From Escherichia coli O157:H7 (lineage in GTDB: Bacteria > Pseudomonadota > Gammaproteobacteria > Enterobacterales > Enterobacteriaceae): DNA of 64,000 bases. Location: the NCBI RefSeq assembly GCF_013167455.1, contig NZ_CP038328.1. One strand, 5' to 3'. This document shows positions 1 to 5,110 of this stretch, piece after piece. How positions within the stretch are numbered: the first letter of the stretch is position 1; each line of letters opens with the position of its first letter. A program made the position numbers.

Positions 1-3000
1 AGCGGGAAGTGATGTCTTTTTGCTTAAGCGTATTCGCTATGTCGATGAAGAAGCGGTATCGATTGAGGAATCGTGGGTTCCGGCGCATTTAATTCATGAT
101 GTTGATGCCATCGGAATTTCTCTTTATGACTATTTCCGCAGCCAGCACATTTACCCACAACGTACACGTTCCCGCGTTAGCGCCCGGATGCCAGATGCCG
201 AGTTTCAGTCACATATTCAGTTAGATAGCAAAATACCGGTGCTGGTGATCAAGCAAGTGGCGCTTGACCAACAGCAACGGCCTATTGAGTACAGCATTAG
301 CCACTGTCGCAGCGATCTATACGTTTTTGTGTGCGAGGAGTAGTTCCTCGCGCGTTGGCGCACAATCACCGCCCCGATGCCCGACAACCCACGACGCCAC
401 TGCATTGCCCAGTAATACGGCATCCGCCAGTGGCAGACCAGAGGCCAACCCGGCAAGTACGCCACCTGCATGACTGTCGCCCGCCCCAATGGTGTCTACA
501 ACTTGCGTGGGAAATGCCGGAATGCAGCCAGAAGCGTCGTTGCTGAAATACCATGCGCCCTCTTTATCGAGACGAATGATCAACGGCGTGGCAAATTTCT
601 CCTGCCATTGCTTGCCAAGTGTTGTTATCTCTGCGGATAAAGCAAAACGTTCGGCGGCAATCTCAGCCTCCTGACGATTGAGCGACACTAAAGGTCGACA
701 GGCCATGATCCGCGCCAGTAATGCCTCCGGGATATCGCCAATACGTGGGCCAAAATCGATAAACGGCGTCACGTCTTGCAGCTTTTCCAGCCATTCCACT
801 AATAATTCGCCGCAGGGCGAGGCCAGTTGATAACCGGAAAAATAGAGCAGGCTGCCAGGCGCAACGGTTAATCGCGCCAGCCACTGGCGATTCCACTGAT
901 TTTCCACACCGCTGAATGACATAAAAGTGCGTTCGCCATCCGGCTCAACCAGCGCCAGACACCAGCCGTTATCACCTTCGGCGTTATCGATCAGGCTGAT
1001 TAAGCCCTCTTTTGCCATCCGGTTGCGAATAATCTCCGCCCACACGCCCTGACCGAGCGGCAAGGCGTTACCCGCTTCGATGCCGAGGCGCTTTAACGCC
1101 ACGGCAATATTCAGTGCGCAGCCGCCAACGTTAACGCTCTGCTGTTTCAGTTCGATATCGCACCCACGCCAGGGGAGGGCATAAGCGTCGGCGATCACAT
1201 CAATGACTGCCGCGCCAATCACCATAACCGGCTGACGCGTGGTTAATTCAGGCAGCAGCGTGTGTAATCGAGCGCCGCTCATGCCGCCTCCCGTTGTTGA
1301 CGATATTTCGCCAGCGCTGTGGCATAGCGGTTGAAATCAAGCTGATTTACCGCATCCAACTCCGCCTTTAACGCAGGATCGATAGCGTTAATGCCATGCA
1401 ACGCGCCGCAGATTGCCGTCGCCATAGCACCGATGGTGTCTGTATCGCCGCCAAGGTTAGCGCACAGGACGGCGCAGCGATTCGGGTCGGTTTGTGCCAG
1501 TTCAACCAGCGCAATGGCGCACGGAACGGACTCAATAGTGCTGGTACCTGCGCCAACGACCTGGTAAAGCTGTTCGCTGGCGGATTCAGTGCCGTCGGCA
1601 TTGCGCACAATTTTCAGCGCAATCTCCAGCCGCGCTGCCAGTGAGGCGCTGAACGTGGTGGTGCGTTTTTGCTGTGCATGTCGCGCAATTGAAGGCAATG
1701 AATCAACAATCGCTGACCAGCTTTCTCCGTCAATAGCACGAGAAATCGCCCATGCGATGACTACCGCGCCCGCAACCGCCAGATCGGATTTATGGGTCGG
1801 GCTCGACGCCAGCGCCACATCATTAATAAAGGAATCAACATCACGCGCCGGAAGCAAACAACCTAATGGCGAGACGCGCATCGCTGCGCCGTTGGTCACG
1901 CCGTTGTTTTCCAGTTCAGCAACGGGTTTACCGTCGCGAATGGCGTTAAGCGCAATCTTCGAGGTCGGACCTAGTACGTTTTTGTTAAAGGCGTCGAAAC
2001 GCAGCGCCCAGTCGAGAATATTACGCCCAATCAGATTCGGGTCGATCTTGCCTTCACGTTCCAGTAACGCATCCGCCAGACACAGCGCCATCGAGGTATC
2101 GTCGGTGAATTCGGCGCGGTTAAAATAACAGGCCGCGTTGTTCTCCTTTGGTCCAGGCAGAAAACGGTCAATCCAGCCAAAGTGTGCTTTAACGCGGCTG
2201 CGTGGCCAAAGCTCGGAGGGCATCCCCATCGCATCCCCTAACGCCTGCCCATAAAGAGCACCGAGAATACGTTCTGTTTTCATTTAACTTCCCCTTGTGT
2301 CAACGCAATATCGCGATCATCGACCTTGATAGCCGTAATTTCGTTGTCGGATTCGCGGAAAAAGATCATGAACAGCACGGCGATAATGGCAATCATCACC
2401 GCGCCAAAAGTCCACATCCCGGACCAGTTGAAAGTCAGTCCGTTTACCGGTTCCTGATAAGCGAACATCTTTTCCATCATCACACCGCCAAGACGATAGC
2501 CGAGCAAACTGCCGAAGCCCTGGCAGCAGAGCGTGATCAGTCCCTGCGCAGCGGTACGCATATGCACGGGGGCTTTTTTATCGACATAGATGTAAGCGGT
2601 AACGTAGTAAAAATCGTAACTTACGCCGTGCAGCAAAATGCCGAGGAACAGTAACGCGTAGGTGAAATATTCATCCGCACTACCGTAAATAAAGAAGCCA
2701 TAGCGGATCGCAGCGGTGACCAGACCAAGCAATAATACCTTTTTGATACCAAAGCGTTTGGTGAAAAACGGCAATGCCAGCATAAAGAATATTTCAGAGA
2801 ACTGGCCGAGCGTCATCCAGCCGGTGGCGTTTTTCATGCCAACTTCGGTCAGATAACCGTTGGCAAAGATGTAATAGAACGCCAGTGGCATCGCAAACAG
2901 GAATGAACAGAAGAAAAAGACGAGGAAGTTTTTATCGCGCAGCAGGATCAGCGCATCCAGGCCGAGCATGACTTTAATGTCCATTTTGCCGGTGCTTTTT

Positions 3001-5110
3001 GGCGGCGTGTCGGGCAGGAAAAACGCAAACACACCGAGCAGAGCAGAACTTCCGGCGGTAATCAGCAGCGGGATGTTAGTCGGTGAGATATCGGCATACC
3101 CCAGCATTTGCGGCAAGAAACCACATGCCAGACCAGAGGCAATCCAGCCGATAGTGCCCATCACACGAATGCGCGGGAAATCACGCTCCACATCCGGCAC
3201 GTTGGCAAAAGCGATGCTGTTAGTCAGCGCAATGGTCGGCATATAGGTTAGCGAGTAGGCCAGCAGTAACGGGAAGAACCCGGCAAAAGTGGTCTGTTGC
3301 GCAGCGAAATACATCAGCGCCGCACCAGTGAACATCAATACCGCCAGCACTTTCTGCGCCGAGAAAAAGCGGTCAGTGATGGAGCCAACCAGAATTGGCG
3401 ACAGGATCGCCGCAATGGCTGTGCAGGCATACGACCAGCCAATTTCTCCGGCACTAAAACCGCTTTTACTTAACCACAGCCACAATGGCACAAACCACGC
3501 GCCCCAGATAAACCATTCAACAAACATCATGAACGACAGCTTTGTTGTTGTTTTCATCTTTTAATTCCTTCATGACAGGTAATGTAAGGTACGCGATGAC
3601 AATACCACTTAATAATACCTTTTAAATACCTTTGCGGTGAAAACTTGACCGCGCTAACATTTTTTCTGATGAATCGAGCCAACAGAAAACGCTGAAAAAA
3701 CATCCAAAAGATGGAAAAACTCGCCCGTAACGACCAGGATTATGATTGCCCGCAAAAGGCGGGCCAGGACAATCCATAGCCGATATCCAATCGGAATTTA
3801 CGGGAGCATAGTAATGACAGATATTGCGCAGTTGCTTGGCAAAGACGCCGACAACCTTTTACAGCACCGTTGTATGACTATTCCTTCTGACCAGCTTTAT
3901 CTCCCCGGACATGACTACGTAGACCGCGTGATGATTGACAATAATCGCCCGCCAGCGGTGTTACGTAATATGCAGACGTTGTACAACACCGGGCGTCTGG
4001 CTGGCACAGGATATCTTTCTATTCTGCCGGTTGACCAGGGCGTTGAGCACTCTGCCGGAGCTTCATTTGCTGCTAACCCGCTCTACTTTGACCCGAAAAA
4101 CATTGTTGAACTGGCGATCGAAGCGGGCTGTAACTGTGTGGCATCAACTTACGGCGTGTTGGCGTCGGTATCGCGGCGCTATGCGCATCGCATTCCATTT
4201 CTCGTAAAACTTAATCACAACGAGACGCTAAGTTACCCGAATACCTACGATCAAACGCTGTATGCCAGCGTGGAGCAGGCCTTCAACATGGGCGCGGTGG
4301 CGGTTGGTGCGACTATCTATTTTGGCTCGGAAGAGTCACGTCGCCAGATTGAAGAAATTTCTGCGGCTTTTGAACGTGCGCACGAGCTGGGCATGGTGAC
4401 AGTGCTGTGGGCCTATTTGCGTAACTCCGCCTTTAAGAAAGATGGCGTTGATTACCATGTCTCCGCCGACCTGACTGGTCAGGCGAACCATCTGGCGGCA
4501 ACCATAGGTGCAGATATCGTCAAACAAAAAATGGCGGAAAATAACGGCGGCTATAAAGCAATTAATTACGGTTATACCGACGATCGCGTGTACAGCAAGT
4601 TAACCAGCGAAAACCCGATTGATCTGGTGCGTTATCAGTTAGCTAACTGCTATATGGGCCGGGCCGGGTTGATAAACTCCGGTGGTGCTGCAGGCGGTGA
4701 AACTGACCTCAGTGATGCAGTGCGTACTGCGGTTATCAACAAACGCGCTGGCGGAATGGGGCTGATTCTTGGACGTAAGGCGTTCAAGAAATCGATGGCT
4801 GACGGCGTGAAACTGATTAACGCCGTGCAGGACGTTTATCTCGATAGCAAAATTACTATCGCCTGATACGAACGGCACTACCCCGTAGGACGGATAAGGC
4901 GTTTACGCCGCATCCGGCAACCTATGCCTGATGCGACGCTGAAGCGTCTTATCATGCCTACGCAGCGCTGCCACATATGTTTACGCCGCATCCTGCATAA
5001 AACCACGCGCACTTTGTTGCGGCTTCCCTCCGGGAGGCCGTTTTTTTTGCCTTTCATTCCTCTATTAATTTTCATATTGTCGTTTTTGTGATCGTTATCT
5101 CGACATTTAA

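Follow-up and report, generated by a model that had tools for sequence, protein, structure and literature searches.

The window, a stretch of 64,000 nucleotides from an Escherichia coli O157:H7 chromosome (contig NZ_CP038328.1) with 100% identity to O157:H7-type chromosomes, opens with the yegTUV operon, the convergent regulator gene yegW (ggaR) and the neighboring gene fbaB (Table 1). In our judgment, there is an even chance that the yegTUV products form a three-step, substrate-inducible pathway for the catabolism or salvage of a non-canonical riboside, that is, a ribofuranosyl compound other than the uracil (U), adenine (A), cytosine (C) and guanine (G) nucleosides. The listing of open reading frames (ORFs) and the RefSeq coordinates of yegW, yegV, yegU, yegT and fbaB in a 100%-identical O157 genome coincide exactly and agree with a preliminary description of the locus, according to which three minus-strand ORFs with 4-nt overlaps face a convergent GntR-family gene; the overlaps lie at positions 1279-1282 (yegV/yegU) and 2280-2283 (yegU/yegT), and the plus-strand yegW ORF ends at 343, so that its 3' end overlaps that of yegV by 27 nt (317-343). 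The identities given there to the three gene products, a nucleoside:H+ symporter (NHS)-type transporter, an enzyme of the ADP-ribosylglycohydrolase (ARH) fold and a ribokinase-family kinase, are confirmed by Pfam and NCBIfam assignments. The first 6 kb of the window is covered over at least 80% in 5411 of 5426 complete E. coli genomes; yegT, yegU, yegV and yegW are genuine genes under conservation and did not arise as ORFs by chance, and the three operon genes belong to the E. coli core (more than 99% of complete genomes). The regulator, the operon structure and the YegT structure have already been published, and the locus is an annotated and partly characterized one. New here are the linkage of the genes across species with swapped transporters, the fusion proteins, the residue comparisons for YegU and YegV, and a tandem GGTAT operator.

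Table 1. Genes and predicted regulatory elements at the yegTUV locus (window positions)
Feature	Position	Strand	Description
yegW (ggaR), 3' part	1..343	plus	GntR/HutC-family repressor; only the UTRA effector domain lies in the window, whose left edge cuts the gene
yegV	317..1282	minus	321 aa; PfkB/ribokinase-family kinase (ORF and Pfam PF00294)
yegU	1279..2283	minus	334 aa; ARH-fold hydrolase (ORF and Pfam PF03747)
yegT	2280..3557	minus	425 aa; transporter (PF03825 and TIGR00889)
Second operator-like copy	2724..2750	minus	GGTATCAAAAAGGTATTATTGCTTGGT, inside yegT, ORF nt 808-834
Inverted half-sites	3578..3592	minus	GTACC 3592-3588 and TTACC 3582-3578; downstream of the repeats, role inferred
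Candidate GgaR operator	3602..3634	minus	three direct GGTAT repeats: 3630-3626, 3619-3615 and 3606-3602
Predicted sigma-70 promoter of yegTUV	3612..3641	minus	-35 TTCACC 3641-3636, -10 TATTAT 3617-3612, 18-nt spacer
fbaB	3814..4866	divergent from yegT	RefSeq annotation of the identical genome

By its profile matches, YegT belongs to the NHS family, scoring 652.4 bits with TIGR00889 (cut-off 446.1) and matching PF03825, Nuc_H_symport, with an E-value of 3.9e-183. A crystal structure of YegT at 3.1 A is available (Xiao et al. 2025, PMC11979927). YegT shares the family, the fold and the GXXXD protonation motif with NupG and XapB, but is only about 27% identical to NupG, whose uridine-contacting residues are not conserved in it, and the purified protein gives no significant signal in isothermal titration calorimetry (ITC) with uridine, adenosine, cytidine or guanosine (PMC11979927).

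YegU matches the Pfam family PF03747 along nearly the entire profile (positions 1-285 of 287, E-value 5.3e-66, 223.7 bits against a cut-off of 26.2), and a search for close homologues identifies solely enterobacterial orthologues named 'ADP-ribosylglycohydrolase family protein'. An AlphaFold model, computed with 25 homologues in the alignment (predicted local distance difference test, pLDDT, 96.9; predicted template modeling score, pTM, 0.95), has the all-alpha ARH fold. A Foldseek search with this model detects similarity to 1T5J, the uncharacterized archaeal protein MJ1187, with template modeling (TM) scores of 0.82/0.90, and to ARH3 and DraG with TM scores of 0.72-0.78; 1T5J is also the closest solved relative by sequence (E-value 2e-29), and the model superposes on a Thermus ARH-related protein as well. 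In a HMMER alignment, YegU residues E24, T60/D61/D62 and D280/D282/T283 match E41, T76/D77/D78 and D314/D316/T317 of human ARH3, which form the Glu-flap and the binuclear-metal ligands (review by Rack et al., PMC7050489). None of the 25 homologues deviates at D61 or D282, and conservation of T60, D62, D280 and T283 is at least 90%. Because the two-metal ligands are invariant or nearly so, YegU is very probably an active metal-dependent glycohydrolase.

ARH3, ARH1 and DraG thus have the fold and the two-metal ligands in common with YegU, at 20-26% identity in fold alignments, whereas the ARH3 adenine-stacking residues differ and the genomic context of YegU is metabolic rather than related to signaling. 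The aromatic residues F143 and Y149, which clamp the adenine in ARH3 (PMC7050489), align to N126 and V129 of YegU, and the position of V129 is non-aromatic family-wide. The alignment is suggestive of a pocket unlike the ADP-ribose/adenosine pocket of ARH3; given that adenosine binding varies between ARH classes (PMC7050489), it excludes the ARH3-like mode only. The characterized ARH enzymes cleave alpha-linked ADP-ribosyl bonds (PMC7050489). YegU scores 81 bits with the DraG equivalog model (cut-off 337) and 69 bits with the Tri1 model (cut-off 490).

When 1.84 billion cluster representatives are searched exhaustively, 237 relatives of YegU are obtained at E<1e-30. A separate scan of one genome per GTDB species gives 77 loci, whose genes were called by a simple ORF heuristic and clustered. 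Of these 77 loci, 70 have a called ARH hydrolase gene, 61 a PfkB kinase gene and 52 a GntR regulator gene, and the ARH and PfkB genes are adjacent in nearly all cases. The transporter varies: NHS/YegT is found in 27 loci (Enterobacterales, Vibrio, Gilliamella), a PnuC-family transporter (PF04973; TIGR01528 at 150 bits, cut-off 42) in 20 loci (Clostridia, Lachnospiraceae, Gemelliphila and a Pasteurellaceae isolate), and an NCS1 permease in 15 loci (Bacilli, lactobacilli, Dialister, Sutterella, Serratia oryzae, Chromobacterium). Distant homologues that were looked up independently again show the ARH-PfkB-NCS1 arrangement. The enzyme pair is spread over Enterobacterales, Vibrio, Lachnospiraceae, Clostridia, lactobacilli, Dialister, Sutterella and the staphylococcal cassette chromosome (SCC) regions. 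In the latter, SCC/orfX regions carry a trio of ARH, NCS1 permease and ribokinase genes, and in S. epidermidis and S. haemolyticus the trio (SERP2216-2218) adjoins orfX within mobile regions that are SCC-like (PMC3637587); therefore, the module is horizontally mobile.

Two further loci, both from metagenome-assembled genomes (MAGs), contain an energy-coupling factor (ECF) transport system and a PurM-like putative kinase instead of PfkB. These loci (L067:2340-6484 from a Spirochaetales MAG and L085:2302-8197 from a Bacillota MAG) encode a YegU homologue and a GntR regulator along with an S component, EcfA-A', EcfT and a PurM/ThiL-like (AIRS-domain) protein; the last may be a non-orthologous replacement of the kinase.

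Fusion proteins of 600-760 aa occur among the best 150 of the 237 YegU relatives, and nine of the ten that were scanned combine ARH and PfkB domains, in both orders: ARH-PfkB in P0205, P0220, P0246 and P0215, and PfkB-ARH in P0209, P0218, P0189, P0195 and P0203. The tenth, P0163, is a tandem double ARH protein. Across the 77 loci, no further enzyme that would reveal the aglycone is consistently linked to the module, which therefore looks self-contained; on this basis, the aglycone would be either a common metabolite or a discarded product. Neighboring genes such as thiD/thiM, fbaB, purB, galK/galT and guaC reflect lineage-specific synteny.

YegV belongs, by profile comparison, to the PfkB/ribokinase superfamily (PF00294, E-value 4.6e-56, 190.8 bits), and its top PDB matches are ribokinases (E-value about 1e-16). 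Among the NCBIfam equivalogs, no cut-off is reached: the ribokinase models TIGR02152 and NF008353 give 83 bits (cut-off 299.65) and 62 bits (cut-off 341), respectively, and the pseudouridine kinase model NF007355 gives 20 bits (cut-off 540). Further information comes from an alignment of E. coli RbsK with 63 kinases, namely YegV and 62 proteins encoded beside YegU homologues. The equivalents of RbsK D16, G41-G42, N46, N187/E190 and the G-A-G-D255 motif are conserved, and the corresponding YegV residues G53-G54, N202/E205 and G266-A-G-D269 are present in 61-63 of the 63 kinases; thus, RbsK and YegV have in common the PfkB fold, D16, the GG dipeptide, N46, the NXXE motif and the catalytic Asp of GAGD. 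Conversely, RbsK N14, K43, A98 and E143 are replaced: the N14 position is hydrophobic, K43 is Cys in 58 of the 63 kinases, A98 is Cys in 52, and the E143 position is variable, with V, C and A at the positions of N14, K43 and E143, respectively, in YegV itself. The kinases encoded beside YegU homologues also have the family-specific residues N105, W/Y107, R118 and F120 (61 of the 63 for each of the last two). In the ribokinase structure of Sigrell from 1998, D16, N46 and D255 reportedly hold the 2-, 3- and 5-hydroxyls, and N14, K43 and E143 are said to face O1/O4. If these roles apply, YegV would retain the machinery for phosphorylation of the 5-OH of a ribofuranose, with the C1-side pocket remodeled and in part aromatic; by score and by the free-ribose contacts N14, K43 and E143, YegV appears to fall outside the RbsK ribokinase equivalog.

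Taken together, these observations are compatible with the following scheme. YegT would import a non-canonical riboside together with a proton, YegV would use ATP to phosphorylate the ribose 5-OH of the imported compound, and YegU, with its two-metal ARH-fold site, would cleave the bond at ribose C1, yielding ribose-5-phosphate and the free aglycone; YegW/GgaR, bound to the tandem GGTAT repeats over the promoter and to the weaker copy in yegT, would be released by a phosphorylated ligand. Consecutive action of YegU and YegV is suggested because the ARH-PfkB fusions occur in both domain orders. Apart from this, the scheme draws on the constancy of the hydrolase and the kinase while the transporter is swapped, and on the negative ITC results with the four canonical nucleosides. 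The gene content, the operon structure and repression (published), the gene linkage and the conserved catalytic residues are established; we infer the kinase-then-hydrolase order, the products, the operator and the chemical class of the substrate. That a modified nucleoside or ribosyl compound is taken up and catabolized, as suggested in the preliminary description, is supported at the level of inference by the ARH-PfkB-GntR module, the fusions, the riboside- or vitamin-type transporters and the 5-OH residues.

The candidate substrates include pyridinium ribosides (nicotinamide or nicotinate riboside), alpha-ribosides and modified RNA nucleosides. The families of the transporters are indicative of ribosides or vitamin-like cations, with nicotinamide or nicotinate riboside as examples, and the alpha-specificity of the characterized ARH enzymes points instead to alpha-ribosides, such as alpha-ribazole, or to breakdown products of ADP-ribose; modified RNA nucleosides are a possible class as well. 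The transporter types do not discriminate between nicotinamide riboside, alpha-ribazole, dihydrouridine and other candidates, and none of these is chosen here.

In the reverse order of the two enzymatic steps, YegU would cleave the riboside to free ribose and an aglycone, and YegV would be a dedicated ribokinase that captures the ribose. We consider this order unlikely. The best family and PDB matches of YegV are indeed ribokinases, some loci in Edwardsiella and Serratia contain the ARH gene and a regulator without a kinase, and Bacteroidetes ribose-utilization loci pair ribokinases with putatively ribose-liberating ADP-ribosylglycohydrolases (bioRxiv 10.1101/574913). YegV, however, remains far below the ribokinase equivalog cut-offs (83 vs 300 and 62 vs 341 bits), and E. 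coli already possesses RbsK. Moreover, the positions that reportedly contact ribose O1/O4 (N14, K43 and E143) have changed, and the family as a whole has acquired a conserved Cys as well as aromatic and Arg residues not present in RbsK. The fusions in both orders are compatible with hydrolysis as the first step but do not favor it.

Analysis of full-length YegW from the identical genome reveals an N-terminal GntR domain (PF00392, 59 bits) and a C-terminal UTRA domain (PF07702, 125 bits), which is the domain architecture expected of a GntR/HutC regulator, and we assign it to this family on that basis. Chromatin immunoprecipitation with microarray detection (ChIP-chip) identifies a single genomic YegW peak that resolves into two sites, one within 190 bp upstream of yegT, i.e., in the yegT-fbaB spacer, and a weaker one within nt 571-869 of the yegT ORF that requires a higher protein concentration (Saito et al. 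2024, PMC10819704). According to the same study, yegTUV is transcribed as a single mRNA of about 3.3 kb that is undetectable in the wild type and increases about 30-fold in the yegW deletion, with fbaB expression unaffected; YegW, a repressor of yegTUV, was renamed GgaR (PMC10819704). The mapping of the YegW operator in the yegT-fbaB spacer, which the preliminary description had proposed as a check, has thus largely been done already, with the second site inside yegT in addition; that description overlooked the published GgaR binding, the ADP-glucose effector and the YegT structure.

Given that the GgaR paper defines no binding motif (PMC10819704), the tandem GGTAT element detected at both published GgaR regions is a candidate operator and a small addition to the published work. 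On the minus strand upstream of yegT, the repeats are carried by the sequence AAAGGTATTTAAAAGGTATTATTAAGTGGTATTG and lie within the 190-bp probe bound by GgaR, and the nearly identical internal copy, GGTATCAAAAAGGTATTATTGCTTGGT, lies within the published 571-869 probe (PMC10819704). The 27-nt operator pattern occurs twice in the window, with 0.01 occurrences expected. The upstream repeats overlap the -10 element of the yegTUV promoter predicted by a consensus scan only, and this arrangement is consistent with repression; in simple scans for terminators and promoters, the overall counts are no better than in shuffled sequence. The 'GCGTACC' sequence at the inverted half-sites is conserved in Enterobacteriaceae. 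In 2.36 Mb of fetched loci, the pattern GGTA[TC]-N6-GGTA[TC] occurs 47 times. About 30 of these occurrences immediately precede the operon's first gene in gamma-proteobacteria (Escherichia to Vibrio, Hafnia, Serratia and Edwardsiella), and 12 represent the internal yegT site. The internal copy encodes part of the conserved peptide FGIKKVLLLGL; its nucleotide motif is retained in Escherichia, Citrobacter, Kluyvera and Vibrio and lost in Enterobacter, and its conservation is confounded because the peptide imposes a coding constraint. In Firmicutes, other AT-rich palindromes are found upstream of the ARH gene, e.g., ATACAAGTTGTAATAACAAG and AACTTGTACG...CGTACGAGTT (loci L045, L046, L050, L054, L055, L057, L066, L070 and L079), which presumably are the operators of their own GntR regulators.

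The convergent yegV-yegW pair is listed among the 'excludons' of a 2025 RNA-seq survey (PMC12288877), and transcription of the repressor gene and that of its target may interfere with each other. Beyond yegW, the identical genome contains yegX, thiD and thiM in its RefSeq annotation. Two palindromic units of the repetitive extragenic palindromic (REP) type, e.g., gtaggacggataaggcgtttacgccgcatccggca, are located between fbaB and gatY (window 4880-4960), and because of these units the 6-kb query has a median of 10 match places per E. coli genome.

Published experiments implicate ADP-glucose and glycogen rather than nucleosides. Under the corresponding explanation, YegTUV would import or make ADP-glucose or a precursor, and GgaR would sense ADP-glucose and thereby set the storage of glycogen (Saito et al. 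2024). In electrophoretic mobility shift assays (EMSA), 10-100 uM ADP-glucose frees GgaR from the promoter probe, and glucose and ADP do not; the yegW (ggaR) mutant, with its derepressed yegTUV mRNA, has a 2-3-fold higher glycogen content and a lower growth rate on glucose minimal medium, and a yegV deletion is listed among the low-glycogen mutants (PMC10819704). Despite these data, we regard this explanation as rather improbable. The effector panel consisted of three compounds and did not include ADP-ribose, nicotinamide mononucleotide (NMN) or phosphoribosides, neither PfkB kinases nor ARH hydrolases are tied by enzymology to the synthesis of ADP-glucose, and elsewhere the enzyme pair is associated with PnuC, NCS1 and ECF transporters, families that are not known for nucleotide sugars. 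The phenotype could also be indirect, e.g., if the 30-fold derepression perturbs AMP or other nucleotide pools.

That YegU is a true de-ADP-ribosylating enzyme acting on a protein or nucleic acid (DraG-, ARH1/3- or Tri1-like), with the transporter and the kinase as unrelated neighbors, agrees with its Pfam membership, the conserved two-metal site and the weak matches to the DraG and Tri1 models, but is highly improbable given that those scores are far under the equivalog cut-offs, no ADP-ribosyltransferase is encoded nearby, yegU is translationally coupled through the 4-nt overlaps and co-transcribed with the transporter and kinase genes, the kinase linkage (fusions included) is conserved across phyla, the ARH3 adenine clamp is missing, and the PADLOC defense-system models yield no match for YegT, YegU or YegV. 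A role in a defense system or in toxin immunity was likewise rejected, with no PADLOC match, no transferase partner, and Tri1 and DraG scores well below the cut-offs.

Several observations weigh against the assignment of yegTUV to a riboside pathway and have to be set beside the evidence given above. The searched literature contains no enzyme activity, transport assay or riboside growth phenotype for YegT, YegU or YegV; similarly, no substrate or activity assignment for YegU or YegV was found in full-text literature searches, and YegV (b2100) is still an uncharacterized sugar kinase in UniProt and in a 2025 preprint. ADP-glucose is the sole reported effector of GgaR (PMC10819704), and the only reported phenotypes concern glycogen, biofilm and pressure resistance. 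The characterized ARH enzymes are alpha-specific, whereas ordinary nucleosides are beta-linked. The fused kinases keep GAGD, but the YegV-type GGC signature is present in only one of the 11. Four Edwardsiella and Serratia loci (L032, L034, L035 and L044) contain the ARH gene, the GntR regulator and the GGTAT operator without an adjacent kinase or transporter gene, an arrangement that the kinase-first scheme does not explain; therefore, the hydrolase evidently can work without a dedicated kinase. Finally, the gene calls in the loci rest on a simple ORF heuristic, and the roles of the RbsK contact residues are those reported in the ribokinase structure literature.

A broader form of the riboside hypothesis, to which we lend somewhat less credence than an even chance, is that YegV and YegU represent a route of two enzymes that is widespread among gut and host-associated bacteria and whose ARH-fold member acts on a small molecule instead of a modified protein, hydrolyzing the 5-phosphoribosyl compound made by its partner kinase. 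Because the ARH enzymes are alpha-specific and PnuC, NCS1 and ECF transporters recur in the loci, this compound could be an alpha-linked or pyridinium riboside. Such a route, if real, would establish a role in metabolism for the ARH family and provide a pathway for three core E. coli genes. Identification of the substrate would add a nutrient or salvage pathway of relevance to gut ecology, extend the chemistry of the ARH fold, and clarify whether ADP-glucose and glycogen are linked to the operon directly or merely as a by-product of its derepression. For a known locus such as this one, the analysis contributes mainly a hypothesis that is sharper and can be tested, along with a candidate operator, and not a discovery.

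Three systems invite comparison with yegTUV. In pseudouridine catabolism of E. coli, psuT-psuK-psuG (yeiM-yeiC-yeiN) encode a transporter, a PfkB kinase that produces the 5'-monophosphate, and a glycosidase that splits this product into ribose-5-phosphate and the base. The logic of this pathway resembles that proposed for yegTUV, and the resemblance is limited to it: the fold of PsuG is unrelated to the ARH fold of the yegTUV hydrolase, the transporter family differs, and YegV is no PsuK orthologue (NF007355, 20 vs 540 bits). In the Salmonella cluster STM4065-STM4068, an ARH-family gene reportedly accompanies a PfkB riboside kinase, a permease and a GntR repressor (Dougherty and Downs 2003), much as in yegTUV; STM4066 is the aminoimidazole riboside (AIRs) kinase (PDB 1TYY). 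A search with YegV detects 1TYY with an E-value of 1.9e-5 and 27 bits; orthology of YegV with STM4066 was therefore rejected, and the cluster is paralogous to yegTUV, not the same system. The ribose-utilization (Rus) systems of Bacteroidetes combine ribokinases with a transporter and, in some species, an ARH protein, and harvest ribose from ribosides, but differ from yegTUV in their polysaccharide utilization locus (PUL) architecture with SusC/D-type components and in their regulators; the ARH members of the Rus systems are uncharacterized as well.

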